64,000 bases of DNA from a virus. Positions 30,304 through 57,587 of this stretch are shown piece by piece. The notes beneath the pieces were generated by a model, which ran no database searches, was not told the origin of the DNA, and saw nothing but the letters and a program-made list of their open reading frames with translations. The stretch lies in IMG/VR virus record IMGVR_UViG_3300037095_000059; one strand, written 5' to 3'. Made by a program: the position numbers and the translations under genes. The first letter of the stretch is position 1; each line of letters opens with the position of its first letter.

Positions 30304-31191
30304 TTAGGCCGTCAGCATCTCTGCTGGGGCGCTCTCGTCGTCGCCGACGAGAACAGGCTGTGTCTTCGGATTATTGAGAAAACGAATTGCATCGCACAAC
30401 TTCTTACGAAGCTCCCTATTTGGAGTTCTTGGAAGACGGACAAGCTCTAGAGCTATCTTGGCTTGCGGCCTCTTTGTTCTCAGGTAGGGTAGCACTTGGA
30501 GTAGAAAACTTTTGCGGTTCTCTTTTCCGGTGAGTTCCCAAGTGTAGAACTCTCTGGTGTTTCCTTTGGCTTCTTGCGTGTGAAACCACCCGCCGTACAA
30601 CCGCAGAAACAACTGGATAAGAGGGGCATAATTGTTGCCCATTCTAATTCGTAGCATCGGTTTACCGTCAGGAGTAAAAGCTGCTGATATGCAACCTTCG
30701 CCGTCCATGATTCCGGCCACGTATGCGTGCGTTAGTTTGTCTTCAACAAACCCGTCTAGCGTGTCAGTCGTTACGCATTCCCTGTTTTTCATCCCCCGGA
30801 TTTTGTCCATCAACTCTTTGCGTTTCGATGGGTTCTGCTGATCGCCGAGGTCGTAGAACTCCTGAAGTACCAGAGCCTCTTCCTTTTTGATTCGCAGATA
30901 CGGAAGGATATAAGAGAGAAATTGTGGGGCGGCATTCCTGCCGTTGATGTTCCACTGATACCAAACTTGGCCGCGTGCTGGCGTGTGCTTGGTGTAGAAG
31001 CCCCCAAAAGTTTCGACTAGCCCCTTTACCAGGGACAGTTCAACGCTGCTCATAACGATTCTAGGTTGGTAAGGAGTTGCTTTTCCGCCTTCTTTTACAG
31101 TCGGCTTGTATATCGAAAAGCACCCTTCCGCGTCCATCAAACCAGCGGCGTAGGCTTTTGTTCTTTCTCTCATAGGGTCTTTGCTCGGCAT
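30304..31191 (-). CDS. LAGLIDADG homing endonuclease (double motif)
   Basis: AAGLMDAEGCF and VAGIMDGEGCI motifs. Start taken at ATG 31191 after TTGGAGCAGACA. Has its own promoter upstream. Confidence 0.85.
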   Translation of the reverse strand: MPSKDPMRERTKAYAAGLMDAEGCFSIYKPTVKEGGKATPYQPRIVMSSVELSLVKGLVETFGGFYTKHTPARGQVWYQWNINGRNAAPQFLSYILPYLRIKKEEALVLQEFYDLGDQQNPSKRKELMDKIRGMKNRECVTTDTLDGFVEDKLTHAYVAGIMDGEGCISAAFTPDGKPMLRIRMGNNYAPLIQLFLRLYGGWFHTQEAKGNTREFYTWELTGKENRKSFLLQVLPYLRTKRPQAKIALELVRLPRTPNRELRKKLCDAIRFLNNPKTQPVLVGDDESAPAEMLTA

Positions 31192-31208
31192 TGTCTGCTC
31201 CAATTATT

Positions 31209-44371: not shown

Positions 44372-45022
44372 TTAGTCCATTACCCGGACTAAAACTTTTT
44401 GTTTCTTCTTTGGTCTCCTCGAAGGAGCTTTCTTTCTGCAATCAATACATTGACCTTGCAGCCCGTTCCAACGAGAAGCATTTCTTTCGAAACTAGAAAG
44501 GGAGATAAAACTTTTGTGTGTGCTACACCAGGAGGTTCCTTCTGGACCCACTTTTCTAATGTTTCTGGGGGCTCTTTTTGGCTTCTCCGGAAGAGGAGGA
44601 AGCTCGGCACCTACCATTTGGAAAAGCTCTTGCCAGACTTCTCTGTCGTACCATTTCTTTCGGGCGGAGAAAATATCCCAGAGTTCGGATAGGGTCAGCG
44701 TCGGCTCGTCTTTTTCCAAACGAGAAATGGTTCTTATTCTGTGGCAATTGGCACAAACTAATTCGCACTTTTTAAGCTCAGAAACCAGAGCCGCAGGAGT
44801 GCAGCGCCTGACTATTGAGGCTATATTCATAACTTTGTCCCCGTCGATGTGGTCAAAATCCATAGCACAAGAGGGGAATTTTCCCCCACAATCCAGGCAG
44901 GGTCTGTTTTTCAAAAGGACCAAAAGGGCTTCAAAAACCCTTTTATACTGTTTATTCTTTTGTAAATAGTCCTCTTTGTTTTCCTCGTAGTGGGCGCGAT
45001 GATAGGCGGGGTCAGAGGGCAT
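44372..45022 (-). CDS. HNH homing endonuclease
   Basis: DFDHIDGDK...CANCHRIR. The track ORF start (45184) overlaps a tRNA, so the start was moved to ATG 45022. The last codons VRVMD are a motif copy. Confidence 0.8.
   Translation of the reverse strand: MPSDPAYHRAHYEENKEDYLQKNKQYKRVFEALLVLLKNRPCLDCGGKFPSCAMDFDHIDGDKVMNIASIVRRCTPAALVSELKKCELVCANCHRIRTISRLEKDEPTLTLSELWDIFSARKKWYDREVWQELFQMVGAELPPLPEKPKRAPRNIRKVGPEGTSWCSTHKSFISLSSFERNASRWNGLQGQCIDCRKKAPSRRPKKKQKVLVRVMD
44375..44389. repeat. 15-bp motif copy
   Basis: GTCCATTACCCGGAC; encodes the C-terminal VRVMD of the HNH protein. Confidence 0.9.
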
Positions 45023-45034
45023 ACTTCTCCAGAA

Positions 45035-45116
45035 TGGAGCGGAAGACGGGATTCGAACCCGCATGTCAAAGACAGTTGCTTGGAAGGCAACGGCTCTACC
45101 ACTGAGCGACTTCCGC
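45035..45116 (-). tRNA. tRNA, anticodon UCC (Gly) with an unusual 12-nt extra arm
   Basis: Acceptor GCGGAAG/CTTCCGC, T-arm GCGGG-TTCGAAT-CCCGT, anticodon arm GTTGC-CTTCCAA-GCAAC, CCA encoded. Confidence 0.7.
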
Positions 45117-45203
45117 ATGAAACTTGGTAGGCGACTGTGGAATCTAACCACAATGACACCCCTATCGAGGGTGCGTCCTAACATTGGACGAGTCGCCCGT
45201 AAA

Positions 45204-45279
45204 TGGTGTGGTCGGCAGGACTCGAACCTGCGGTGAACTGGGTGTAGGCCAGCCGATTTAGCCGCTAATCTACGACCAC
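45204..45279 (-). tRNA. tRNA-Val (UAC)
   Basis: Acceptor GTGGTCG/CGACCAC, T-arm GCAGG-TTCGAGT-CCTGC, loop CCTACAC, CCA encoded. Confidence 0.8.
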
Positions 45280-45284
45280 AGAAA

Positions 45285-45359
45285 TGGGGCGCGTAGCCGG
45301 AATCGAGCCGACATTCTGACCTTCGGAGGGTCGAGTTCTGTCCGTTGAACTATACGCGC
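45285..45359 (-). tRNA. tRNA-Arg (CCG)
   Basis: Acceptor GCGCGTA/TACGCGC, T-loop CTCGATT, anticodon loop CTCCGAA. Confidence 0.75.
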
Positions 45360-45363
45360 AAAC

Positions 45364-45439
45364 TGGAACCGACCACGGGACTTCAACCCGCATCAACTTC
45401 GTTAGGACCGAAGGGCTCTGTGCATTGAGCTAAGTCGGC
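45364..45439 (-). tRNA. tRNA-Arg (CCU)
   Basis: Acceptor GCCGACT/GGTCGGT, T-arm GCGGG-TTGAAGT-CCCGT, loop GTCCTAA. Confidence 0.75.
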
Positions 45440-45443
45440 GAAA

Positions 45444-45518
45444 TGGAAACCCCATCCGGAGTCAAACCGGAATCTAACGAATAGAAGCCGTTGCTCTCTT
45501 CCCTTGAGCTATGGGGTC
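45444..45518 (-). tRNA. tRNA-Arg (UCU)
   Basis: Acceptor GACCCCA/TGGGGTT, T-arm TCCGG-TTTGACT-CCGGA, loop CTTCTAT. Confidence 0.7.
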
Positions 45519-45524
45519 AAAATT

Positions 45525-45600
45525 TGGTGCCTCGCCAGGGAATTGAACCCTGTCCAATCGGCTTAAAAGGCCGTTATGCCAGCCATCACACTCACGAGGC
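45525..45600 (-). tRNA. tRNA-Lys (UUU)
   Basis: Acceptor GCCTCGT/GCGAGGC, T-arm CAGGG-TTCAATT-CCCTG, loop CTTTTAA. Confidence 0.75.
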
Positions 45601-45648
45601 AACGTTTGTCGTCCTCGGATTTTCGACTTGTCATAACGTCCTCCAAAA

Positions 45649-45725
45649 TGGTGGGTCGCCAGGAACTCGAATCCTGCTCTGTCGGGTAAGAACCGACTGC
45701 TTCAAACCATCAAAGCTTGCAACCC
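45649..45725 (-). tRNA. tRNA-Lys (CUU)
   Basis: Acceptor GGGTTGC/GCGACCC, T-arm CAGGA-TTCGAGT-TCCTG, arm GTCGG-TTCTTAC-CCGAC. Confidence 0.8.
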
Positions 45726-45726
45726 G

Positions 45727-45820
45727 TGGTAGGCGACCAGGGGGTCGAACCCTGCCGTTGCGCTATTCGAGGCGCTCTCCCGGGGATATAAAGCCCAGCC
45801 GCACACCGATGCTATCGCCC
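45727..45820 (-). tRNA. class II (long-arm) tRNA, anticodon not assignable by eye
   Basis: 94 nt. Acceptor GGGCGAT/GTCGCCT, T-arm CAGGG-TTCGACC-CCCTG, long extra arm GCGC-CTCGAATA-GCGC. The anticodon region GGGC-TTTATAT-CCCC can be registered as UAU or UUA. Confidence 0.6.
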
Positions 45821-46186
45821 AAAACTTTTGTCCATTAACCGGACAATATCCTTCTTCAACTGTGCAACCTTCGCGGGCGGCATGTACAACTCGCCCTTCT
45901 TGACCAAGGCTATTCCTCCCTTTTTCACCGTGCCGCCTTTGTGAAAAGTAGCGGGAGACGCTTTGCTAAAATTGGGAGTCGGCAGGCTCGGGGTGTAGCT
46001 GGGGCCCGGGGCTTGCCTTGTATTCGCTTGTAGATCGTCTGTTGTTGCTGCGCGAGCAGCGGCGTTCTTGGCTTCAGCGGCCTGCATAGCAGAGCCCACG
46101 GCCCCGACGGCGGACCCTACTTTCTGCTTAGTGGTCTGCGGTGTTTTGGAGTCCGGTTTGTCGGTGCCTACCATTGCGTTTGCCAC
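45812..46186 (-). CDS. hypothetical protein, 124 aa
   Basis: Track ORF. The 3-prime end overlaps the tRNA by 9 nt and contains a motif copy (..VRLMD..). Confidence 0.5.
   Translation of the reverse strand: MANAMVGTDKPDSKTPQTTKQKVGSAVGAVGSAMQAAEAKNAAARAATTDDLQANTRQAPGPSYTPSLPTPNFSKASPATFHKGGTVKKGGIALVKKGELYMPPAKVAQLKKDIVRLMDKSFGR
45830..45844. repeat. 15-bp motif copy
   Basis: GTCCATTAACCGGAC; near the C-terminus of the 124-aa CDS. Confidence 0.9.
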
Positions 46187-46326
46187 GTATTCTCCTTGTG
46201 TTGTCTTGGTGCCGCACGAGCTAATCGAAAGCTAACTCCGAAGTCCTTATGAGAGACTCGTCCAACCTTTGGTGCGCGGCTTACGCAAACTGCGTACATT
46301 TGTACTCAAAACGAGTACATTCAAAA

Positions 46327-46401
46327 TGGCAGGAGATGTAGGATTTTAACCTACAAGTTCCGTTTTGGAGACGGACAGTTTGACATTGAGCTTAATCTCC
46401 C
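46327..46401 (-). tRNA. tRNA-Trp (CCA)
   Basis: Acceptor GGGAGAT/ATCTCCT, T-arm GTAGG-TTAAAAT-CCTAC, arm TCCGT-CTCCAAA-ACGGA. Confidence 0.8.
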
Positions 46402-46408
46402 GTAAAAC

Positions 46409-46483
46409 TGGTGCCCGGTAGAGGAGTCTAACCTCTGTCTCGAAGTTCGTAGCTTCGTGTCTTATACGTTATACGAACCGGAC
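46409..46483 (-). tRNA. tRNA-Arg (ACG)
   Basis: Acceptor GTCCGGT/ACCGGGC, T-arm AGAGG-TTAGACT-CCTCT, arm CGAAG-CTACGAA-CTTCG. Confidence 0.8.
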
Positions 46484-46554
46484 TCAGCGCGAATCGAATC
46501 GAACGATTTCCACGAGCATCCGAGGCTCGGAGGCGACCACTACCCCACGCACTG
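46484..46554 (-). tRNA. tRNA-Pro (CGG)
   Basis: Acceptor CAGTGCG/CGCGCTG (C1:G72, A73), T-arm AATCG-TTCGATT-CGATT, arm CGAGC-CTCGGAT-GCTCG. CCA not encoded. Confidence 0.75.
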
Positions 46555-46561
46555 CTTAATA

Positions 46562-46637
46562 TGGTCAGCGGGCCGGGCTCCGCTTCCGGGACACGTGCTT
46601 CCGGAGCACGGAGGTTACTAGGCTACACTACCCACTG
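46562..46637 (-). tRNA. tRNA-Pro-like (CGG), atypical T-loop
   Basis: Acceptor CAGTGGG/CCCGCTG, arm CGTGC-TCCGGAA-GCACG, T-loop AGCGGAG, C at position 33. Confidence 0.55.
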
Positions 46638-46643
46638 ATAAAT

Positions 46644-46717
46644 TGGTCTGGGAGGGGAATTATGCTATCCCGACACAAGCTTCCAGAGCTTGGATGTTTC
46701 TTCTACACTACTCCCAG
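46644..46717 (-). tRNA. tRNA-Pro (UGG), atypical T-loop
   Basis: Acceptor CTGGGAG/CTCCCAG, arm CAAGC-TCTGGAA-GCTTG. The T-arm is irregular. Confidence 0.6.
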
Positions 46718-46718
46718 G

Positions 46719-46795
46719 TGGTCAGGGCGGTGGGAAATCGAACCCACTCCACAAGTCTCCCAGACTTGGATGCACAACCTCTACACTACACCCTG
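46719..46795 (-). tRNA. tRNA-Pro (GGG)
   Basis: Acceptor CAGGGTG/CGCCCTG, arm CAAGT-CTGGGAG-ACTTG, T-arm GTGGG-TTCGATTT-CCCAC. Confidence 0.7.
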
Positions 46796-46803
46796 ATAAA
46801 ACA

Positions 46804-46881
46804 TGGTGCGGATTCAGCGAATCGAACGCTGTTCTTTCGCTCTTCAGGCGAACGCTAAATCACCAGACTAGCTCAATCCGC
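46804..46881 (-). tRNA. tRNA-Phe (GAA)
   Basis: Acceptor GCGGATT/AATCCGC, T-arm CAGCG-TTCGATT-CGCTG, arm TTCGC-CTGAAGA-GCGAA. Confidence 0.85.
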
Positions 46882-47049
46882 AAAACTGTGCGTGGTCTCT
46901 CCCCGCCGTCACTCCACTCAGCCCCAGGCGATCAACGGGAGACTGCTGCCGCAGGTGTCGCGGTTCTCAGCTTTGGTGGACCAGGAGGGGCTTGATTCCT
47001 CGCGCAGACGCTTGCATCCATCTGAAAGTACTGGCCCATTGTTAAACCA

Positions 47050-47274
47050 CTACCAAATATCCCATGCCACAGTCTTTTTCACAGCAGGCATTTCTTTCTC
47101 CTGCGCGACTGCTGCCGTTGCAGCACGTCGATACTTGCGATTCCTGATCTTTGCCCAGGATTTACGCCCCGGCCATGCTCCACCATAAGCGCCAGGATAA
47201 CCACAGAGTTTGCGCCACGCCTCACGAGTCGCTTCCTGTATCTTCCAAGGCATCGTGTTAATCGTTCGGGACAC
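47050..47274 (-). CDS. small basic protein, 74 aa, inside the tRNA array
   Basis: Track ORF. GTG start 6 nt after GAGGAG. Confidence 0.45.
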   Translation of the reverse strand: MSRTINTMPWKIQEATREAWRKLCGYPGAYGGAWPGRKSWAKIRNRKYRRAATAAVAQEKEMPAVKKTVAWDIW

Positions 47275-47347
47275 AACTTACTCCTCAAACTTGGTGGAGC
47301 CTGTTGTCAGCCACCGGATCGCGCCCGGCCCCATGATGGTTTACATT

Positions 47348-47422
47348 TGGTGGAAAAGAGGAGAATCGAACTCCTACCTACTGGGTGCAGACCAGTCGTG
47401 CTCCCATTACCACTACTTCCCC
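47348..47422 (-). tRNA. tRNA-Ala (UGC)
   Basis: Acceptor GGGGAAG/CTTTTCC with G3:U70, T-arm AGGAG-TTCGATT-CTCCT, arm ACTGG-TCTGCAC-CCAGT. Confidence 0.75.
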
Positions 47423-47597
47423 ACATTTCAAACTTACGCCGAGGTCCTACCTTAGATGATGGTGCGGAACTCACCGCATATTCCAGGGAGAGTCGAACTC
47501 CCGTTTCTCGGCGCTTCTCGCCAGACGCTTTACCCAAAGCTACTAGGTGGTTTTACCCGGGCCTAGTCCGGACTCGAACCGGATTCTTCTGGCTGCT

Positions 47598-47673
47598 TGG
47601 AGGGAAGGGGACGAGTTGAACGTCCTAGAGAGTGGATTCACAGACCACCGCCGCACCGTTTGGCTTCCGACCC
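47598..47673 (-). tRNA. tRNA-His-like (GUG)
   Basis: T-arm GGACG-TTCAACT-CGTCC, arm GTGGT-CTGTGAA-TCCAC, CCA encoded. The acceptor GGGTCGG/CCTTCCC has two internal mismatches. Confidence 0.55.
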
Positions 47674-47781
47674 AAAATTTTCCGAGCTTTAGGCTGATCT
47701 GCTGGCCAGCTAAAGGGCTAGGCCCACGATCAACTTTTCACTGCACCCTATTTCTAGGGGGTACCCGGTGTAGGACTTGTT

Positions 47782-47796
47782 GTCCATTACCTGGAC
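47782..47796. repeat. 15-bp motif copy
   Basis: GTCCATTACCTGGAC; tRNA-array spacer. Confidence 0.9.
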
Positions 47797-47880
47797 GAAT
47801 CTTGAAGCAAGGTTTACTCTGAAACCCGGCAGAAAAGTCAGACCACTTCGTTTGGTAGAACCAGGCAGGTGTCGCCTGTG

Positions 47881-47955
47881 TGGAGCGCCCGGACAGATTC
47901 AAACTGCCTTCTCCCGGGTACAGGCCGGGCGAATCTTCTGGTATTCTTCAGGCGC
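47881..47955 (-). tRNA. tRNA-Thr (UGU)
   Basis: Acceptor GCGCCTG/CGGGCGC, arm CCCGG-CCTGTAC-CCGGG, T-loop TTTGAAT. Confidence 0.75.
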
Positions 47956-48024
47956 AAATCTCAACTAAAGACATTGTACCACAGCAGTCTTCAGCTTGTC
48001 AACAACTATTTCAGAAAAACTTTG

Positions 48025-48098
48025 TGGAGCCGACGAGGGGAGTTCAACCCCTATTTCTGACGTACCAGGTCAGCGTTGTAGCGTTGAACCACATCGGC
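48025..48098 (-). tRNA. tRNA-Thr (GGU)
   Basis: Acceptor GCCGATG/CGTCGGC, T-arm AGGGG-TTGAACT-CCCCT, arm CTGAC-CTGGTAC-GTCAG. Confidence 0.8.
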
Positions 48099-48099
48099 T

Positions 48100-48173
48100 T
48101 GGAGCCCGGTCGGGGAATTCAACCCCGGTCTTCGCGGTACGAAGGCGAAAGTCTAGCACTGACCTAACCAGGC
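48100..48173 (-). tRNA. tRNA-Thr (CGU)
   Basis: Acceptor GCCTGGT/ACCGGGC, T-arm CGGGG-TTGAATT-CCCCG, loop TTCGTAC. Confidence 0.75.
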
Positions 48174-48176
48174 GTT

Positions 48177-48191
48177 GTCCATTATCTGGAC
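48177..48191. repeat. 15-bp motif copy
   Basis: GTCCATTATCTGGAC; 3 nt from the tRNA-Thr 5-prime end. Confidence 0.9.
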
Positions 48192-48375
48192 GAAACATTG
48201 CCGCTTGAGGGCCGGATGCTTCCCCGGCTTTTACGAACCGCGTGGTAGGGCGGCCAACCTCGGAGTGCGCATCTCCTGCGGCAAACTAATCGCGCCGTTC
48301 CGACCTGCTTAGACCTTCCATAGAAGGCGAGGTTTGCAACCCTCGACAGGCACCTTTCTGGATACTGCGCGAACT

Positions 48376-48450
48376 TGGAGCGAAGGACCAGACTCGAACT
48401 GGCGTCTACGGACTGGCAATCCGAGGTACTAGCCGCTGTACGACCTTCGC
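48376..48450 (-). tRNA. tRNA-Gly (GCC)
   Basis: Acceptor GCGAAGG/CCTTCGC, T-arm GCCAG-TTCGAGT-CTGGT, loop TTGCCAG. Confidence 0.8.
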
Positions 48451-48455
48451 AAAAA

Positions 48456-48530
48456 TGGCAGGGGGTACTGGAATTGAACCAGTCTTCAGGGCTTCAAAGA
48501 CCCTTACCTAAACCAATCGGTCAACCCCCT
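48456..48530 (-). tRNA. tRNA-Gln (UUG)
   Basis: Acceptor AGGGGGT/ACCCCCT, T-arm ACTGG-TTCAATT-CCAGT, arm AGGGT-CTTTGAA-GCCCT. Confidence 0.8.
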
Positions 48531-48535
48531 AAACT

Positions 48536-48609
48536 TGGCTCGGGCAGATGGAATCCAACCACCGCCATTCGGGTCAGAGCCGAATGTCCTAGCACTAAAC
48601 GATGCCCGA
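48536..48609 (-). tRNA. tRNA-Gln (CUG)
   Basis: Acceptor TCGGGCA/TGCCCGA, arm TTCGG-CTCTGAC-CCGAA, T-loop TTGGATT. Confidence 0.75.
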
Positions 48610-48617
48610 TTAAATTT

Positions 48618-48693
48618 TGGCTCACCCGGAGGGCCACGATCCCCCAACCTCTCGGTTAACAGCCGAGCGTTCTGCCAATTGAACTACAGGTGA
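48618..48693 (-). tRNA. tRNA-Asn (GUU)
   Basis: Acceptor TCACCTG/CGGGTGA, arm CTCGG-CTGTTAA-CCGAG. T-loop ATCGTGG is atypical. Confidence 0.7.
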
Positions 48694-48703
48694 ACATTAA
48701 ACT

Positions 48704-48780
48704 TGGTAGGGTTGATGGAGCTTGCATCCATTAGGGCCTGCGTGAAGGGCAGGGTGCTCGACTACTTTGCATTCAACCCC
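48704..48780 (-). tRNA. tRNA-Glu (UUC)
   Basis: Acceptor GGGGTTG/CAACCCT, arm CCTGC-CCTTCAC-GCAGG, T-arm ATGGA-TGCAAGC-TCCAT (atypical loop). Confidence 0.7.
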
Positions 48781-48788
48781 AAAACTAA

Positions 48789-48866
48789 AACGGATGGTGG
48801 CCCTACACTTCTTACGCCACTGTCGATGAGGCTTAACTTCCCCTCGTTGCCGAGTGTTGCATCCGT
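48789..48866 (-). ncRNA. tRNA-sized element with a perfect acceptor-like stem but a non-canonical interior
   Basis: ACGGATG...CATCCGT (7 bp) encloses 64 nt. I could not draw standard D, anticodon or T arms. Confidence 0.35.
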
Positions 48867-48872
48867 TTAACT

Positions 48873-48946
48873 TGGCGGCCTACCAGGGAGTCAAACCCTG
48901 ATCGTGAGGATGAGGACCTCACATCCTGTCGTTAGAAGAGTAGGCC
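48873..48946 (-). tRNA. tRNA-Glu (CUC)
   Basis: Acceptor GGCCTAC/GTAGGCC, T-arm CAGGG-TTTGACT-CCCTG, arm TGAGG-TCCTCAT-CCTCA. Confidence 0.8.
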
Positions 48947-49220
48947 AAAACATGGCCGACTTACATCCCGAAGGAAAGCGGCAAAACTTTGCCGGTCTTT
49001 CCCGGCGGTCAGGAGTAGCACTAATCGAGCCTTCTTAACCACGCTCGGGTGGAACCATCAAGGTGAGGGGTTGCCCACGGTTTCCAAACCGTCTCGTTAC
49101 TGGACTTCGCTGTGCTCACCACAGCCGCCCTATCCGAGTAGCGCGGAAGAAGGGTGCTCAATTAGCTCCTTGAGACGGAGGGGAGCCTGTACAAGCCTAC
49201 CGGCGGGTACAACATCAAAA

Positions 49221-49299
49221 TGGCGCGAGCGAGGGGACTCGAACCCCCGAATAAATCCTCATGGACAGTGAGGTGCAGTTGCCGCTGTGCTACGCCCGC
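49221..49299 (-). tRNA. tRNA-Asp (GUC)
   Basis: Acceptor GCGGGCG/CGCTCGC, T-arm GGGGG-TTCGAGT-CCCCT, arm CCTCA-CTGTCCA-TGAGG. Confidence 0.8.
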
Positions 49300-49460
49300 G
49301 TAAGATTGTACTCCAGATTATAAGAGATGAATTTTATCACATCTCCCGCTGCCGGGGTATTAAGTCCATTGTCTGGATGAAGTTCGCAGTATTTGTCCCA
49401 CGCAGTCTTGTGCGGACATGGTCTGCTGTAATAATTAGAAATACATTCTTCCAGATTCAT
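49290..49460 (-). CDS. small protein, 56 aa, inside the tRNA array
   Basis: Not in the track. ATG 49460 after GAGGAAGC. MNLEECISNYYSRPCPHKTAWDKYCELHPDNGL...; the stop overlaps the tRNA-Asp 5-prime end. Confidence 0.4.
   Translation of the reverse strand: MNLEECISNYYSRPCPHKTAWDKYCELHPDNGLNTPAAGDVIKFISYNLEYNLTRA
49364..49378. repeat. 15-bp motif, degenerate copy
   Basis: GTCCATTGTCTGGAT; encodes HPDNG in the 56-aa ORF. Confidence 0.5.
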
Positions 49461-49472
49461 GCTTCCTCAAAT

Positions 49473-49549
49473 TGGTTCAGGGAGGGCGATTCGAACGCCG
49501 CTATTCATTCGAGCTTATGAGGCTGAATGCCACACCAACGGGCCCCTGT
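49473..49549 (-). tRNA. tRNA with CAU anticodon (Met/fMet/Ile2 type)
   Basis: T-arm GGCG-TTCGAAT-CGCC, anticodon loop CTCATAA, acceptor ACAGGGG/TCCCTGA with a 1:72 mismatch. The D arm is irregular. Confidence 0.55.
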
Positions 49550-49570
49550 ATAAACATTATACCACAAAAC

Positions 49571-49661
49571 TGGTGCAAGCAGAGGGATTCGAACCCCCAA
49601 TGTCATCAAAGATAATCCAGATTTACAGTCTGGCGCACCCAACCGTATGTGCCTTACTTGC
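49571..49661 (-). tRNA. tRNA-Tyr (GUA), class II
   Basis: 91 nt. Acceptor GCAAGTA/TGCTTGC, arm CCAGA-CTGTAAA-TCTGG, T-arm GGGGG-TTCGAAT-CCCTC. Confidence 0.85.
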
Positions 49662-49662
49662 G

Positions 49663-49747
49663 TGGAGGAGAGCAGCCGAATCGAACGGCCATCCTTGCGG
49701 AGCCCCGGTTTTCAAGACCGGCTGTATCACCATCAACAGTGCTCTCC
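49663..49747 (-). tRNA. tRNA-Ser (UGA), class II
   Basis: 85 nt. Acceptor GGAGAGC/GCTCTCC, arm CCGGT-CTTGAAA-ACCGG, T-arm GGCCG-TTCGATT-CGGCT. Confidence 0.85.
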
Positions 49748-49993
49748 AAAACTTACCGCAATCCCTGCGGCCTCACTTTCTGAGCGGTTCAGAGGAAGTG
49801 TGTTCAGTAACCCCGAATCCAGGGTGAGCCTTACAGACCGCTAGCGGTACAACGTCAAAACTTAACTCCCCGACTTCTACGCGACACCTTGCTGAGCTTG
49901 TCAGGGCCAGCCGGGCTCGGGGAACCGGGTCATATTCCAACCCTTTGACAAGGGAATAAGGAACAGGGGACGACCGGCGGCACACGTCAAACA

Positions 49994-50080
49994 TGGCGGA
50001 AGATGAAGTATCGAAACCTTGTCCATTATCTGGACAGCACCGGGTTCGAGCCGGTTTGGGCACCTTGCCCGCCATCTTCC
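49994..50080 (-). tRNA. tRNA-Ser (CGA), class II, extra arm formed by the 15-bp motif
   Basis: 87 nt. Acceptor GGAAGAT/ATCTTCC, arm ACCGG-CTCGAAC-CCGGT, extra arm GTCC-AGATAAT-GGAC. The T-stem is weak. Confidence 0.65.
50021..50035. repeat. 15-bp motif copy
   Basis: GTCCATTATCTGGAC; forms the variable arm of tRNA-Ser(CGA). Confidence 0.9.
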
Positions 50081-50085
50081 TAAAA

Positions 50086-50171
50086 TGGCGGAAAGTACAG
50101 AACTCGAATCTGAATCCTTGCGGATCGCACCGCTTTCCAAGCGGGCCCAGGCCCTGCCCGGTCTACTTTCC
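50086..50171 (-). tRNA. tRNA-Ser (GGA), class II
   Basis: 86 nt. Acceptor GGAAAGT/ACTTTCC, loop TTGGAAA, T-arm TCAGA-TTCGAGT-TCTGT. Confidence 0.8.
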
Positions 50172-50217
50172 ATTAAGGAAAAACTACCTACTTTTTCTTG
50201 CACAAAACTTGACAAAA

Positions 50218-50305
50218 TGGCGGAAGAGGGGAGACTCGAACTCCCAATACCCGAAGGTATCGCTGCCTTAGCAGAGCAGTGCAGTACCAATTGTGCCACT
50301 CTTCC
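50218..50305 (-). tRNA. tRNA-Ser (GCU), class II
   Basis: 88 nt. Acceptor GGAAGAG/CTCTTCC, arm CTGCT-CTGCTAA-GGCAG, T-arm GGGAG-TTCGAGT-CTCCC. Confidence 0.85.
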
Positions 50306-50310
50306 AAACT

Positions 50311-50393
50311 TGGTGCCGATGAGGGGGATCGAACCCCTACCCCGAAGGACTAGGTTTTGAATCTAGCGTGGCTCCCAATTACACCACATCGGC
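50311..50393 (-). tRNA. tRNA-Leu (CAA), class II
   Basis: 83 nt. Acceptor GCCGATG/CATCGGC, loop TTCAAAA, T-arm AGGGG-TTCGATC-CCCCT. Confidence 0.8.
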
Positions 50394-50397
50394 AAAG

Positions 50398-50568
50398 CTA
50401 CTCTTCGTCACACCCGACGTACTCAGACAAAGCGTCGGCAGCCTCGACGTAAGCCCGGCGAAGTTTGTGAAACTCTTCGTCCTTGACTTCGGAAAAATCA
50501 CTGTAATTCCGGAAGGCATAATCGAAGCCTTCGTTCTCGACGCAAGCTGCAACTTCCCAGAGCTTCAT
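50398..50568 (-). CDS. small acidic protein, 56 aa, inside the tRNA array
   Basis: Track ORF 50398..50700 overlaps two tRNAs, so it was trimmed to ATG 50568 after AGGAGGAAAG. Confidence 0.5.
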   Translation of the reverse strand: MKLWEVAACVENEGFDYAFRNYSDFSEVKDEEFHKLRRAYVEAADALSEYVGCDEE

Positions 50569-50583
50569 CTTTCCTCCTAATCT

Positions 50584-50669
50584 TGGTGCGGTTGAAGAGA
50601 GTCGAACTCTTACGCTTGTTACGGCGTCTGGTTCTGAGCCAGGTGCGTCTGCCATTCCGCCACAACCGC
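50584..50669 (-). tRNA. tRNA-Leu (CAG), class II
   Basis: 86 nt. Acceptor GCGGTTG/CAACCGC, loop CTCAGAA, T-arm AAGAG-TTCGACT-CTCTT. Confidence 0.8.
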
Positions 50670-50670
50670 G

Positions 50671-50747
50671 TGGTGCCGTCGAGCGGATTCGAACCGCCAC
50701 TCAATATCTTCTCAGAATATCCCCTCTGCCAATTGGGGTACGACGGC
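50671..50747 (-). tRNA. tRNA with GAG (Leu) anticodon but class I shape
   Basis: 77 nt. Acceptor GCCGTCG/CGACGGC, T-arm GGCGG-TTCGAAT-CCGCT, arm ATATT-CTGAGAA-GATAT. The variable region is only 5 nt. Confidence 0.65.
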
Positions 50748-51137
50748 GATTCCGTTCCATCTTGGAACTAAAACTTTGCCGGATTCTGTTCCCAAGTTCC
50801 GGCAGACTCGGGCGGTTCTTAAGCCGCCATTGGCAATTCGAAAGGAACTGCGTTTAGTTTTCCGTGTCCCGTTACGGTGGGCCACAGCATCCCGGCACGA
50901 AGCTACGGTTCACTGGTTCCGTCGAAACCTGGACGCCCCCTCAATGGTGGAGGCGGCGGGAGTCGAACCCGCGTCCGAAATCATTTCCCCGCAGGGTTGA
51001 CGTGCGTACTTGGGGCCCCTCTTTTAGGCGGGGGTTGAGAACTGAACCGCGCTCGACTGAGAGAGTCTCTGCGGAGCGGGCGGAACAACAACAGCGTTCG
51101 TGGTGATAGTGAACGACATAATCATCACTCGAAACTT
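50748..51137 (-). ncRNA. ssrA: tmRNA (SsrA), circularly permuted two-piece gene; outer ends approximate
   Basis: Acceptor piece ends ...GGGGAAATGATTTCGGAC-GCGGG-TTCGACT-CCCGC-CGCCTCC-A-CCA (CCA at 50945-50947). The coding piece starts 4 nt later at 50940 with GGGGGCG-TCCAGGTTTCGACGG (G3:U70 with the acceptor piece). Tag frame at 50851..50822 is GCA GTT CCT TTC GAA TTG CCA ATG GCG GCT (AVPFELPMAA). The TAA stop (50821-50819) lies in the loop of GGCGG-CTTAAGAA-CCGCC. Confidence 0.75.
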
Positions 51138-51213
51138 TGGAGGACCGTGTCGGAGTCTCGCCGACTAAAGTGGGTTTGCAATCCACTGGTTCCAAAACTT
51201 TACCTTCCGGTCC
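51138..51213 (-). tRNA. tRNA-Cys (GCA)
   Basis: Acceptor GGACCGG/ACGGTCC, T-arm GTCGG-CGAGACT-CCGAC, loop TTGCAAA. Confidence 0.75.
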
Positions 51214-51214
51214 T

Positions 51215-51293
51215 TGGTGCGGGCGGCTGGATTCGAACCAGCAGGAACCGGGTTTTTAGGACCCAGATGTCTTCCTAGTTGCATCACGCCCGC
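51215..51293 (-). tRNA. tRNA with UAA (Leu) anticodon, short variable region
   Basis: 79 nt. Acceptor GCGGGCG/CGCCCGC, T-arm GCTGG-TTCGAAT-CCAGC, arm TGGGT-CCTAAAA-ACCCG. Confidence 0.65.
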
Positions 51294-51480
51294 ACCGGCT
51301 CAAAACTTGCGTTCAAAACTAAATGGCTGCCGAATGTCGCAAGGCCCCCGAATTCCCCGGCAAGGGCGGTTGTTTTGTACCACGCAGGATTGCCGTCCGG
51401 CGCGTTTTGTCAACCCTTATAACAGCCAAACTGTGTCCACCAAAATTATTGTACTACAGGAGGGTTCGGTTTGTCAAGCC

Positions 51481-52047
51481 CTAAGAAGAGTACAGGTAAG
51501 GAGCCCACCGGGCGTCTTCAGCCAACCCCACAAGCCTCAGCAACATACGGGACGTATGGATCGTCAACCGACCAGGGGTGTGCAGCAGCTTCATGCCCGC
51601 TTCGTCCGGAGTCCGGTCGCCCTTCTTCCGATTGCATTCCCGGCAGCACGCACAAAGGTTATCCCACCAAAAGCCACCCCCGCGAGATTCGGGCAGGATG
51701 TGGTCCAGTGTCAAGACAACTTTACACGGCTTCCCATTTACAATCCGGGTTGAGCCTTCTTTGGCCCCGCAGTATTGACACAAATACCTGTCCCGGGCGT
51801 AGATGTTTGACCGAGTCAGAATCGAAATCCGGATCGGAATTTTTTTGTAGTTCCGCAGCCGGATCACACACGGCAGCAGGATCGGAGGATTCTGTCCATT
51901 TCCCGGATAAACCGCAACCCCGTAGTCTTCTTCCGTGACCGCCGCACCTTTGACCAGGAGCTTGATCGCGTTCTTGGCCCGGCAAATGCTAACTGGTTCG
52001 AACGAGGCATTAAGCACGAGTACGGCTTTGTTAATTAAATTTCCCAC
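51481..52047 (-). CDS. HNH endonuclease (McrA-like small HNH family)
   Basis: AVLVLNASFEPV... and LDHILPESRGG...NLCACCRECNRKKGDRTP. Start placed at GTG 52047 after GAGG; ATG 52143 (the track start) is an alternative. Confidence 0.75.
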   Translation of the reverse strand: MGNLINKAVLVLNASFEPVSICRAKNAIKLLVKGAAVTEEDYGVAVYPGNGQNPPILLPCVIRLRNYKKIPIRISILTRSNIYARDRYLCQYCGAKEGSTRIVNGKPCKVVLTLDHILPESRGGGFWWDNLCACCRECNRKKGDRTPDEAGMKLLHTPGRLTIHTSRMLLRLVGLAEDARWAPYLYSS

Positions 52048-52078
52048 GTTCAAACCTCTCGGTTCTGATCGGCTTCCT

Positions 52079-52342
52079 TCAGGCGCAAGTGTTTGCTTCT
52101 CTGTCCCCGTTTTGGGCGGATTTGCGTGTTGCACATTTTCCATCCTGTGCTTTTAACAGAGCCTCGTAGTCTTCAACAGAAATCCCGAAGTTGTGCATCA
52201 AACTATTACTGCGACTATTTCTTCTTCCCTTTTCAGATTGGTTGTATTCGTGGAAAACAACGCTTCTTTTGGCCCGCATAATTTCGTCGGGAGTCAAATC
52301 AGAAAAATCTGCCGTAAGATACAAAGGTTTGGCTAGAGGCAT
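52079..52342 (-). pseudogene. Endo VII-like N-terminal fragment (truncated)
   Basis: ...FGISVEDYEALLKAQDGKCA parallels FNLTLDQYDAILRKQKGACALCG of 53551..54216. It then leaves that pattern and stops, with the HNH gene beginning in another frame at the break. Confidence 0.45.
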
Positions 52343-53200: not shown

Positions 53201-53554
53201 CTACCACAACCCGTTGAAAGCCCCGAGGGCCGCCAACTGCTTCATACGTTTTTGGAACTTGCGCCCGTGCGCTTGTTCCTCGGGAACCTTCCACTGTTGT
53301 ACGTGGACCATCTCGTGGATTAAAGTCCCAATCCAAATCCGGGATTGCTTTCGGTACAGGGGGTTGAGACTAATCCGGATAGGTCGTCCCGTTTCGTGGT
53401 CGGACCAAGTACTCCCCAAGATCATTCTGGCTCTTCCTCCCGCAAATGATCTTTTGTCGAAGCCGACGCGAAGGTCTTTGGGAAGTCTTCCCCCGAAGTA
53501 CCGGGAGTTTAGAAGGTGGTACAGTTCTTTGGGGGTCGGCGGTTTTTCCTTCAC
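53201..53554 (-). CDS. SprT-like zinc metallopeptidase-domain protein, 117 aa
   Basis: LNSRYFGGRLP...LIHEMVHV...HGRKF is the SprT pattern. Confidence 0.65.
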   Translation of the reverse strand: MKEKPPTPKELYHLLNSRYFGGRLPKDLRVGFDKRSFAGGRARMILGSTWSDHETGRPIRISLNPLYRKQSRIWIGTLIHEMVHVQQWKVPEEQAHGRKFQKRMKQLAALGAFNGLW

Positions 53555-54216
53555 AGGCTTCTTTTGCCCCCACGAGGATTCATTCGGACCCCGGCTTGCT
53601 TAAGCCGTCTTGAAATGGTCTCTCGGGTGGTTCCAAAGAGTTTCCCTATCTCTTTCGCCGACAAACCGCGACCGGAATCGTACAATTCAATGATCTTTGG
53701 AAGGGGGAGTTCTAATCGTCCGTAGCCGCCCATTGGCAAGGGCTTCGGTCTGTTTTGGTTCTCGACAACCTCTTCCGTTCCCCAAGGCACAAAAAAGGGA
53801 ACAGAAGCCTCTTCGACATAGTTCGCTGCTTTTCTGAGAAGAGTCGAGTCGTCGTGAAGCTGCCCGATTCCACGGTTACATAAATCGCAAAGCAACCCGC
53901 GTACCTGCCCCGTGATATGATCGTGGTCCACGGCTAAGCTTTTACCAGACCGATGGGTGTCCGATCCAGAAGGAACAAACCCACACAAGGCGCAAGCTCC
54001 CTTCTGTTTTCTCAGTATTGCGTCGTATTGATCCAGGGTAAGATTAAAATTATCCCGGAGTTTAATCTTTCTTGAACTATGCCGAGCCCTTGCTTTCACT
54101 TCTTCGGGGTGGGTTGCCCTGTATATTTCTCCTCGAATCTTGCTCCGGAGTTTTTTCTGTTCTTCTTTTGGCAGAAGTTCGATACCCTCGATACGGTGTT
54201 TTATTGGGACACCCAC
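53551..54216 (-). CDS. recombination endonuclease VII-family nuclease with C-terminal HTH
   Basis: GACALCG...LAVDHDHITGQVRGLLCDLCN, plus IIELYDSGRGLSAKEIGKLFGTTRETISRRLK. GTG start after GAGGAG. Confidence 0.8.
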   Translation of the reverse strand: MGVPIKHRIEGIELLPKEEQKKLRSKIRGEIYRATHPEEVKARARHSSRKIKLRDNFNLTLDQYDAILRKQKGACALCGFVPSGSDTHRSGKSLAVDHDHITGQVRGLLCDLCNRGIGQLHDDSTLLRKAANYVEEASVPFFVPWGTEEVVENQNRPKPLPMGGYGRLELPLPKIIELYDSGRGLSAKEIGKLFGTTRETISRRLKQAGVRMNPRGGKRSL

Positions 54217-54723: not shown

Positions 54724-55218
54724 CTACTCCGGCATCGGAACTTGGTAGTTGGCCGTCAGCTTTTGGACGTAGGAAGCGACACCGGGGGAAAGATTCACCA
54801 TCGGATGTCCGGCGTTCCAGCACTCCCCAATTCCGGCCAGGCTTGAAGGCTTCCACCGAGCCAAAAGGTGGTTCAGGAACCCGACCGTGGCCGAAGCGCA
54901 TTTCCCGAGATCGGACATATCCTTGGGCGAGAACCCGGGAGGGCAATTAGGAAACATTATCTGCCAGGGACCGTAAGAGCACGCTGCGGCAGAGCCGTAC
55001 TTCTTCAGGAGGGGGGCCATTACCGGACCGGAGCCATAAACACCCCCCGAGTCGAAGGCCGGTTCGTGCCGGGGAACGCAATTAACACCAAAGCTCGACT
55101 CGTTCCCGCTCATAGCCCATAGTAGTTGGGTTCCGTCAACACCGGGAGGCAGTCCGAGTAGTTTGGGACCCGATACCCGGCATTGGTCTGCGATCTGTTG
55201 GGGGGTAAAATTAGTCAC
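54724..55218 (-). CDS. lytic transglycosylase-like endolysin candidate, 164 aa
   Basis: MSGNESSFG (catalytic E-S) and SYGPWQIM resemble SLT-domain motifs. Confidence 0.55.
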   Translation of the reverse strand: MTNFTPQQIADQCRVSGPKLLGLPPGVDGTQLLWAMSGNESSFGVNCVPRHEPAFDSGGVYGSGPVMAPLLKKYGSAAACSYGPWQIMFPNCPPGFSPKDMSDLGKCASATVGFLNHLLARWKPSSLAGIGECWNAGHPMVNLSPGVASYVQKLTANYQVPMPE

Positions 55219-55275
55219 GCAGGTTTCCTCGGGGTTGGGTGTTGGTTATTTAATCAACATTTGCTTTTGGTTTGG

Positions 55276-55297
55276 AAAAAGCCCCCCAAGGGGCCCC
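55276..55297 (-). terminator. possible intrinsic terminator (minus strand)
   Basis: Minus strand reads GCCCC-TTGG-GGGGC followed by TTTTT. Confidence 0.35.
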
Positions 55298-55512
55298 AAA
55301 GTACCAAGCCGGTTTTTGGGAGACCCCTTTTCAATTCTAAAGGGGTTATGAACCGAGAGGATTTGAAACTGTTTACTACTTAATCAACTTTTCTCCTCAA
55401 AACAGAATCTGAGAAGAAGGAAGGGGGTTTACTAGGTCACGTAGCCTCCCCACGGCACCCCTAAGGGGGCAAGGCCACCCCCACCTAAAAACCACTCAGG
55501 GTCCCCTCTATC

Positions 55513-56866: not shown

Positions 56867-56945
56867 AATCGCAGAGTGAGGCACGGCGCAGCGTGCCTTT
56901 AATGCGGCGGTATCGTTTCAAGCCGATACGCATAGAAAGGGAGCT

Positions 56946-57587
56946 ATGAATCAACCCATCACCACGGCGGAGTATATCACACTGCAAACGGCTTACGACT
57001 TCTTCAATCAGGAGCTATTTGCCGGGAAGTTGCCGCAATGCCTGATTACCTTGCAGCGCAAGAAAGGCGCAAGGGGTTATTTTAGCCCGGACAGATTCTC
57101 AGGTCGCGGCTTCGAGGGCAAGGCGCACGAATTGGCCCTGAATCCAGATTGTTTCGTGGACCGCACGGATGAAGAGATTCTTTCCACTCTGGTACACGAG
57201 CAAGCGCACGTTTGGCAGCAGGAGTCAGGCAAGCCCGCCCGCAAGGGCTATCATAACAAGGAGTGGGCCTCGAAGATGAAGGATGTGGGCCTCTATCCCT
57301 CGGATACGGCGCAACCTGACGGCAAGGAAACCGGCCAGAAAGTGTCGCACTACATCATCGAGGGAGGCGTTTTCTCTCTGGCCTGGGCCAAACTTGCCAA
57401 GACGGGAATCAAGCTGTCCTGGGAATCCAAAGGCAAGGCAATAGTCCGCACGGCGAAAGCCGAGAGTAAGGTCAAGTACACTTGCCCCAATTGCGAAGCG
57501 AACGCCTGGGCCAAACCGGAAGCTAACCTGCTTTGCGGCGCTTGCTCCTCCGAAGACGGCGGGCTAGTCGATATGATCGCGGCCTGA
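56946..57587 (+). CDS. SprT-like zinc metallopeptidase with C-terminal zinc ribbon, 213 aa
   Basis: FFNQELFAGKLP...LVHEQAHVWQ...HNKEW, then CPNC...CGAC. Confidence 0.75.
   Translation: MNQPITTAEYITLQTAYDFFNQELFAGKLPQCLITLQRKKGARGYFSPDRFSGRGFEGKAHELALNPDCFVDRTDEEILSTLVHEQAHVWQQESGKPARKGYHNKEWASKMKDVGLYPSDTAQPDGKETGQKVSHYIIEGGVFSLAWAKLAKTGIKLSWESKGKAIVRTAKAESKVKYTCPNCEANAWAKPEANLLCGACSSEDGGLVDMIAA

Follow-up and report, generated by a model that had tools for sequence, protein, structure and literature searches.

A circularly permuted tmRNA gene in the tRNA array of an uncultured phage

The DNA analysed here is a stretch of 64,000 nucleotides (nt) from IMG/VR virus record IMGVR_UViG_3300037095_000059, referred to throughout as the window. 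Its minus strand carries, at approximately 51014-50778, a circularly permuted (two-piece type) transfer-messenger RNA (tmRNA) gene within a phage genome. In this gene the 3′ tRNA-like half precedes the 5′ half and the tag, the order that a preliminary description had read from the letters alone: CCA is found at 50947-50945, the first nucleotide of the 5′ half (G1) at 50940 and the tag at 50851-50819. The elements of the gene and its borders, in the direction of transcription, are as follows.

51015-51137, minus: linker from a Cys-like tRNA element to the conserved part of the tmRNA
50945-51014, minus: acceptor piece (3′ tRNA-like half), placed from sequence, Rfam and covariation; 5′ end uncertain
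51005-51001, 50992-50989, 50982-50980 and 50978-50976, minus: P2 strands of the acceptor piece (GCACG, GCGG, GAU and UCG, respectively)
50972-50956, minus: T-arm GCGGG-UUCGACU-CCCGC
50955-50949, minus: acceptor 3′ strand CGCCUCC
50948, minus: discriminator A73, followed by CCA at 50947-50945
50941-50944, minus: intervening segment UUGA, from CCA to G1
50778-50940, minus: coding piece; 3′ end uncertain, may reach towards 50748
50940-50934, minus: acceptor 5′ strand GGGGGCG, in 7-bp pairing with CGCCUCC
50921-50919, 50918-50916, 50908-50905 and 50899-50895, minus: P2 partner strands in the coding piece (CGG, AAC, CCGU and CGUGC, respectively)
50864-50894, minus: pseudoknot 1, made of P3 and P4
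50894-50892 with 50877-50875, minus: P3, CGG/CCG
50885-50879 with 50870-50864, minus: P4, GUGGCCC/GGGACAC, with a conserved central G.A
up to 50851, minus: resume context AAAACUAAAC, then the resume codon GCA at 50851
50819-50851, minus: tag frame GCA GUU CCU UUC GAA UUG CCA AUG GCG GCU UAA
50811-50828, minus: hairpin P5, GGCGG-CUUAAGAA-CCGCC, with the UAA stop (50821-50819) in its loop
50778-50803, minus: post-tag hairpin P6, GCCGGA/UCCGGC, with the conserved loop ACUUGGGAACAGAA
50748-50777, minus: U-rich trailer AAAGUUUUAGUUCCAAGAUGGAACGGAAUC, up to the 5′ end of tRNA-Leu(GAG)

The resume codon sits 89 nt downstream of G1 and opens a frame of 11 codons (ten sense codons and UAA) with the product AVPFELPMAA; the coordinates place its stop in the loop of the GGCGG/CCGCC hairpin, as had been described. 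The 7-bp acceptor pairing, including G3:U70, is likewise present on the minus strand, and the gap between CCA and GGGGGCG is indeed 4 nt (UUGA). All tRNA-like identity elements are present (7-bp acceptor stem, G3:U70, A73, CCA). The last tmRNA hairpin is followed by AAAGUUUU, and the trailer starts with the (A)AGUUU motif that also follows many of the tRNA CCA ends in the surrounding array.

Two independent detectors identified the same gene. ARAGORN called a 'tmRNA*' (permuted) with the tag AVPFELPMAA; because the range of this call (50728-51037) overlaps tRNA-Leu(GAG) by 20 nt, its 3′ limit is not real. In Rfam, the permuted model RF04321 (tmRNA_permuted) matched 50819-51005 with 94.4 bits (gathering score 47, E = 5e-17) and was covered in full, from position 1 to 213 of 213. 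RF00023, the standard one-piece tmRNA model, gave zero matches in the Rfam search. The match to the subtype models was less clear: RF01849 (alpha_tmRNA) scored 53.2 bits and passed its gathering score of 50 narrowly, and RF01850 (beta_tmRNA), with the region searched alone, reached 62.0 bits, below its gathering score of 84, and in clan competition outscores and displaces the alpha model. The assignment to the permuted tmRNA family is secure and the alpha or beta subtype is ambiguous; the match of the sequence elements to a tmRNA is far beyond chance. It had also been argued that no standard 5′ partner could exist upstream, where a tRNA-Cys sits. None is found there, default ARAGORN calling only a tRNA-Leu(UAA) upstream of the gene, but the tRNA-Cys proved to be a degenerate element that default ARAGORN and Rfam both miss.

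The nearest blastn relatives of the window tmRNA are all viral contigs (contigs are given below by their labels in this analysis). For L044 and L055, blastn aligned two segments, at 83% and 86% identity, and across the tRNA-like domain and pseudoknot 1 the identity is 83%; L053 matches along 241 nt at 77%, and L050 and L057 are further off. A search with the conserved loop motif retrieved 13 viral contigs, ten of them new. The uncultured viral clade defined here, from IMG/VR and JGI, comprises L044/L055/L145, L053/L144, L050/L057, L148/L150/L156 and L151-L154. The exact P6 loop occurs in L044, L053 and the contigs from the loop-motif search, and the variant GCUUGGCAACAGAA in L050 and L057. The tags of the clade end in (A/E)LP(M/V)AA or ALQMAA, those of the contigs just listed having ALPMAA, ELPVAA or ALQMAA, and are in some cases 27-28 residues long. 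Similarity to the window begins at about GCCCCAAGUAC, and no homology to the clade was found in the linker at 51015-51137. This linker holds a 33-codon open reading frame (ORF) at 51125-51024 on the minus strand, MIMSFTITTNAVVVPPAPQRLSQSSAVQFSTPA, which is probably spurious because it has no homology or other support. The phage of the window recurs in a second assembly: the JGI metagenome contig L142, obtained independently, is 99.9% identical to the window over the tmRNA and its flanking tRNAs.

To examine the structure, seven distinct sequences of the viral clade were aligned, a structure was written out for them, and controls were made by sliding the 3′ partners by 1-3 columns. Standard pairs filled 91.9% of alignment cells, compared with 34-43% in the slid controls, and 13 pairs showed changes on both sides, compared with 1-2. 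Compensatory changes fell in both P2 inter-piece helices, the T-arm, the acceptor stem, both stems of pseudoknot 1 and P6. The outer P2 helix had both-side changes in two of its five pairs and the next helix in three of four; in pseudoknot 1 they affected one pair of P3 and three of P4. P5 was paired in 100% of cells, and G3:U70 (pair 97/186) was invariant in 7/7 sequences. Relatives have tags of 10, 27 or 28 codons, and in every one the frame stays open, finishes with AA and places its stop in the loop of P5. Compared with L053 (tag ADSFELPVAA), seven codons of the window tmRNA differ, four synonymously and three non-synonymously. Taken together, the covariation and the open tag frame argue that the gene is selected for its RNA structure and for its short coding frame alike, and the same sequence patterns argue against a decaying fragment. 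A single-sequence fold of the whole intergenic region was no better than shuffles (z = -0.86), a measure that is uninformative here because the RNA is pseudoknotted and in two pieces.

The window is phage DNA, and the gene does not lie in a host flank. It encodes a large terminase (phrog_38), a portal/connector and an SU10-type portal and adaptor, together with nucleases of the HNH, GIY-YIG, LAGLIDADG and endonuclease VII types; the phage context is confirmed because terminase, SU10-type portal and adaptor, and homing endonucleases are all present. The tmRNA lies within a minus-strand array of 27 ARAGORN-called tRNAs, to which Rfam adds two more (46331-46400 and 46412-46483, minus strand; 34.9 and 43.4 bits). 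The features at its upstream end and next to the tmRNA are as follows.

51448-51477, minus: promoter candidate TTGACA-18-TACAAT, sigma-70-like, matching the consensus at 11/12 positions, upstream of the first tRNA of the array
51215-51293, minus: tRNA-Leu(UAA), first gene of the array (ARAGORN; Rfam tRNA, 37.9 bits)
51138-51213, minus: degenerate tRNA-Cys(GCA)-like element with U73, an encoded CCA and the non-canonical T-loop CGAGACU
50671-50747, minus: tRNA-Leu(GAG), directly downstream of the tmRNA (ARAGORN, Rfam)

Judged by its sequence, the promoter candidate at 51477-51448 likely starts the tRNA/tmRNA transcript. The Cys-like element (51213-51138) was missed by default ARAGORN and by the Rfam tRNA model at E<=1, and was called only with the very relaxed ARAGORN threshold -ps60; it is syntenic with a normal tRNA-Cys(GCA) at 320-396 of L027, a related phage. 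Most tRNAs of the array have an encoded CCA and then a U-rich trailer, often AGUUU. The motif AAGTTT occurs 16 times in the 6.5-kb array (45000-51500) and 23 times in the other 57.5 kb of the same strand, and an AGUUU-type motif may be a shared 3′-processing signal. Homing-endonuclease-type genes lie at 30304-31203, 51481-52143 and 53551-54216 on the minus strand and elsewhere; the set includes two HNH genes, an endonuclease VII fused to a sigma-70 region 4 helix-turn-helix, and matches to GIY-YIG and LAGLIDADG. Further along, a type-P5 twister ribozyme (RF02684) was matched at 56870-56927 on the plus strand (42 bits, gathering score 37.6, E = 2e-5), just upstream of a SprT-like ORF at 56946-57587.

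We put at roughly 80% the probability that this locus, on a tRNA-rich phage, is a functional ssrA gene in circularly permuted form. In the known pathway for permuted tmRNAs, tRNA-processing enzymes cut the precursor to two base-paired RNAs (summarised in PMC11915505). Here the tmRNA would be transcribed with the tRNA array, probably from the site at 51477-51448, and the host tRNA-processing enzymes would cut the precursor. RNase P would cleave 5′ of G1 (50940) and 5′ of tRNA-Leu(GAG), the latter cut freeing the tmRNA tail, and exonucleases would trim UUGA back to CCA. The expected products are two RNAs: an acceptor piece of about 70 nt with CCA at its end, and a coding piece of about 165-190 nt with pseudoknot 1, the tag frame and two hairpins. 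As the sequence and the covariation show, the acceptor stem and the P2 helices would join them. By analogy with established trans-translation, host AlaRS would charge the RNA with alanine via G3:U70 and A73, and the complex, once bound to SmpB and EF-Tu of the host, would enter stalled ribosomes. A-VPFELPMAA would then be added to the nascent chain and translation would end at UAA, freeing the ribosomes and marking the peptide for proteolysis. The benefit to the phage may be that ribosomes are kept available during infection, alongside its own near-complete tRNA set, although this last step is speculative.

Several points weigh against this model. A tag ending in PMAA is unusual, and its recognition by proteases is a prediction only. 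The beta threshold was failed (62 vs 84 bits) and the alpha threshold barely passed. The covariation set is small (7) and its members are related, so shuffle statistics overstate significance and the slid-partner control is the fairer comparison. The SmpB family was not found among the 56 ORFs of at least 120 residues in the window, itself part of a genome of about 110 kb, and function would therefore depend on host SmpB. Lastly, the related phage L027 has no tmRNA at the same site, where 4 nt separate tRNA-Cys from tRNA-Leu(GAG); this absence refers to the Cys/Leu(GAG) site, the contigs of the related phages (IMGVR_UViG_3300043788_000060, 3300037258_000147 and 3300047471_000189) having been covered over 17-22 kb each. 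The tmRNA is therefore dispensable for this phage type, and the 4-nt gap makes the tmRNA segment of about 390 bp a gain or loss within the phage group.

The true phage relatives behind this comparison are L027, L025 and L019, whose terminases are 58-73% identical to that of the window and which have structural genes in common with it; related viral contigs sharing structural genes are 78-110 kb long. L027 preserves the tRNA order Leu-UAA, Cys-GCA, Leu-GAG, another Leu, Leu-CAA and Ser. The window terminase protein is found on contigs in 28 blocks of the assembly collection. No nucleotide relative of the window was found among 50,697 GenBank phage records by near or distant blastn modes, the distant mode giving 36-39 nt matches to the tRNA-like domain only.

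The phages that carry the tmRNA clade are of other kinds. On the clade contigs the tmRNA stands alone with a terminator-like hairpin, next to genes for the portal and for the small and large terminase, whereas that of the window lies in a tRNA array. These contigs belong to unrelated phages, about 60 kb in size, which share nothing with the window beyond the tmRNA. The presence of one tmRNA clade in unrelated phages indicates that the gene has, evidently, moved between phage lineages. Several clade members carry hairpin inserts of about 60-115 nt in the spacer from CCA to G1 (L148 5127-5546, L153 4474-4950, L154 632-1066), and L153 appears to contain an added inverted copy; the intervening segment looks like a hot spot for insertions.

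A wider survey used the junction pattern CTCCACCA, then 1-10 nt, then a GGGG...GGTTTCGAC 5′ end. Matches came from 33 viral contigs of IMG/VR, most of the scanned ones carrying a permuted tmRNA according to ARAGORN; simple junction patterns of this kind yielded dozens of permuted tmRNAs in IMG/VR contigs. Among about 80 bacterial loci that the pattern recovered from GTDB representatives, none resembled the window tmRNA beyond the conserved tRNA-like core. The genome scan required exact motifs and a spacer of 1-10 nt and may therefore have overlooked bacterial relatives. The clade is divergent and so far known from viral contigs only. The text of the tmRNA database supplement contained no match to 'PMAA'. 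Three junction-pattern contigs from IMG/VR (L028, L039 and L051) carry ARAGORN-called tRNAs with the anticodon CUA (amber suppressor, labelled Pyl), L039 and L051 having an ARAGORN permuted tmRNA as well; these tRNAs may indicate stop-codon reassignment or suppression in the phages concerned. In Dyella sp. AtDHG13 (L090 2017-2329) a permuted tmRNA has the tag GAKPIDANDNVYDQAIAA, the same as that of viral contig L040, and is probably a prophage-borne second tmRNA.

A bolder proposal, which we regard as doubtful, is that the clade is a phage-only lineage of permuted tmRNA that moves between unrelated phages and whose tag has been re-tuned (...LPMAA or ...LQMAA, sometimes 27-28 residues) for a different protein fate. 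Close to it, and also unlikely, is an active but re-purposed RNA that would add a phage-specific tag (...LPMAA instead of ...ALAA) while competing for SmpB and stalled ribosomes with the tmRNA of the host; tagged proteins would either be spared or reach another protease or adaptor, and host quality control would be taken over. The clade tags fit such a role, ending in (A/E)LP(M/V)AA or ALQMAA where the sampled bacterial permuted tmRNAs end in ALAA, AIAA or AVAA, and reaching in some members the unusual length of 27-28 residues. On the other side, the terminal Ala-Ala is kept, and PMAA may still act as a normal degron. The dominant determinants of recognition by ClpX are Ala-Ala and the C-terminal carboxylate. 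That no clade relative appeared among the loci from GTDB representative genomes also favours re-purposing, but with the short-spacer, exact-motif limits of that scan bacterial relatives were possibly missed. A precedent for interference exists in phage DS6A, whose RNA, consisting of the tRNA-like domain only, inhibits the host tmRNA according to PMC4131195.

It is less probable still that the gene is a neutral or decaying passenger, acquired recently by recombination or homing-endonuclease traffic in the array and contributing nothing to the phage. Its absence from the syntenic Cys/Leu(GAG) junction of L027, the wealth of homing endonucleases around the array, the degenerate look of the adjoining Cys-like tRNA and the sharing of the clade by unrelated phages would all suit a passenger. 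However, the helices and identity elements are all intact, substitutions relative to the clade are compensatory, the tag frame is open with its stop correctly placed, and the same gene recurs at 99.9% identity in an independent metagenome assembly. Finally, although ssrA is a frequent integration site for phages and genomic islands, which carry its 3′ end (PMC4383910 and PMC4131195), the idea of a host ssrA fragment kept as an attachment site, or of a one-piece tmRNA with mis-assigned halves, is refuted by the ARAGORN and Rfam results and has next to no probability left: the locus contains the two halves in permuted order together with pseudoknot 1, the tag and the hairpins, the permuted model is matched end to end (1-213/213), the default ARAGORN call upstream is tRNA-Leu(UAA) only, and no integrase family was found among the 56 window ORFs scanned.

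Some further pairings and junctions were considered and rejected. A leader-loop pseudoknot between the P6 loop (ACUUGGG) and CCCAAGU (51014-51008), 5′ of P2, had 73.5% of cells paired and zero both-side changes; in 66 leader/loop pairs the duplex energy relative to shuffled leaders was at chance (mean z -0.1, 6% below -1.64). Beta-type genes have a CATAAT-like hexamer close to P2 that is probably a -10 box, and because it lies so close they are probably without any leader. The alternative P6-loop partner GUUCCAAG (50768-50761), downstream, is not a conserved feature and was rejected because relatives lack this tail and carry a terminator-like hairpin in its place. Junction matches in Acidobacteriaceae, taken initially as short-spacer permuted genes, are standard tmRNAs with a conserved leader that carries GCUGCUCCACCA and 3 nt before G1. 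In Granulicella, Terriglobus and Edaphobacter (L110 250-330, L136, L060, L088, L111) this one-piece tmRNA has the tag AEPQFALAA, and its leader mimics the permuted CCA/G1 junction; the leader could descend from a tandem or permuted ancestor, serve as a processing signal or resemble the junction by coincidence.

The suggestion that the form of the tmRNA might hint at the host lineage did not hold up. Neither the alpha nor the beta subtype fits cleanly and the nearest relatives are all viral, so the ambiguous subtype removes the clue. The tRNA-like domain was equally uninformative, with 52-57/64 identities alike for Acidobacteriaceae, Rhodocyclaceae and several other lineages.

For the phage itself, which is uncultured and rich in tRNAs, the analysis contributes a correctly resolved tmRNA to its annotation. 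The architecture and the known distribution of tmRNAs are unchanged by the finding. What remains distinctive, and of modest interest, is the divergence of the clade, its unusual tags and its occurrence so far in viruses only. The clade, a distinctive group of permuted tmRNAs with unusual tags, circulates in unrelated phages, and its differing tags make it suitable for asking whether phages boost ribosome rescue or redirect protein tagging. If the phage-only lineage were real, phage traffic could help to explain the patchy distribution of two-piece tmRNAs in bacteria.

Two-piece tmRNA was first described by Keiler, Shapiro and Williams in 2000, as cited in PMC9004378. The window tmRNA shares with the permuted family RF04321 the succession of acceptor piece, short intervening segment and coding piece, the elements G3:U70, A73 and CCA, the P2 inter-piece helices, a pseudoknot 1 before the alanine resume codon, and a tag ending in AA with its stop in a hairpin loop. 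It differs in residing on a phage instead of a bacterial chromosome, in a tag without the usual ANDxxxALAA pattern, and in a spacer much shorter than the approximately 27 nt of the merged RF04321 consensus. With the betaproteobacterial type RF01850 (Dechloromonas, Azonexus, Accumulibacter), which gives the best raw score among the clan models (62 bits), it has in common the 4 nt that separate CCA from G1 and the AACAGAA loop motif of the post-tag hairpin, a motif also seen in many viral permuted tmRNAs. The 4-nt spacer of the Rhodocyclaceae loci is implied by match lengths, and those scanned by ARAGORN are permuted tmRNAs; a spacer this short is ordinary, being equally short in Rhodocyclaceae and in 33 viral contigs. 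True RF01850 members, however, score 222-231 bits and the window clade 50-84 bits; their tags read ANDE(R/Q)FA(L/I)AA instead of AVPFELPMAA, and the window tmRNA has no promoter or terminator of its own, lying inside a tRNA array. The alpha type RF01849 is alike in that its gathering score is narrowly passed and in that the viral alpha-type L155 has the exact 18-nt P6 loop motif, and unlike in that the window tag lacks the ANDN start.

Among phages, Buchholz et al. 2022 (PMC9004378) counted 133 unique tmRNAs in 402 of 18,146 phage genomes, and 53 of these tmRNAs were two-piece by ARAGORN. The permuted forms in Table S1 of that study include those of Caulobacter phiCbK-like phages, Pelagibacter phages HTVC008M and Mosig, the OM43 phage Melnitz, Synechococcus myophages, and Stenotrophomonas, Bordetella, Citrobacter and Sphingobium phages. 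Like the window, they are phage-borne two-piece tmRNAs, often in large tRNA-rich genomes, but none is close in sequence to the window tmRNA. The 2025 tmRNA database holds 79 phage sequences. Another case came from the GenBank phage matches of the distant blastn search: Alcaligenes phage vB_Af_QDWS595 (Schitoviridae, OK149171.2; L159 ~54972-55348) has a permuted tmRNA in a tRNA array that scores 111 bits with RF04321 and 93.8 bits with RF01850, a clear beta-type member, and the features annotated in this stretch of the GenBank record leave it uncovered. This cultured phage shows the same architecture as the window, with the tmRNA in the array and a tRNA directly after it; that tRNA has the anticodon UUA (ochre suppressor type). 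It differs in its tag, ANDNVYAAAA, in belonging to a phage family unrelated to that of the window, and in a coding part that starts at 254, compared with 187 in the window, which suggests a longer intervening segment. The premise of the preliminary description, which was not aware of a permuted tmRNA in a phage, is thus wrong in view of the 53 two-piece forms and of vB_Af_QDWS595. Permuted tmRNAs in phages are already documented, and the window adds another example of them rather than a new kind.

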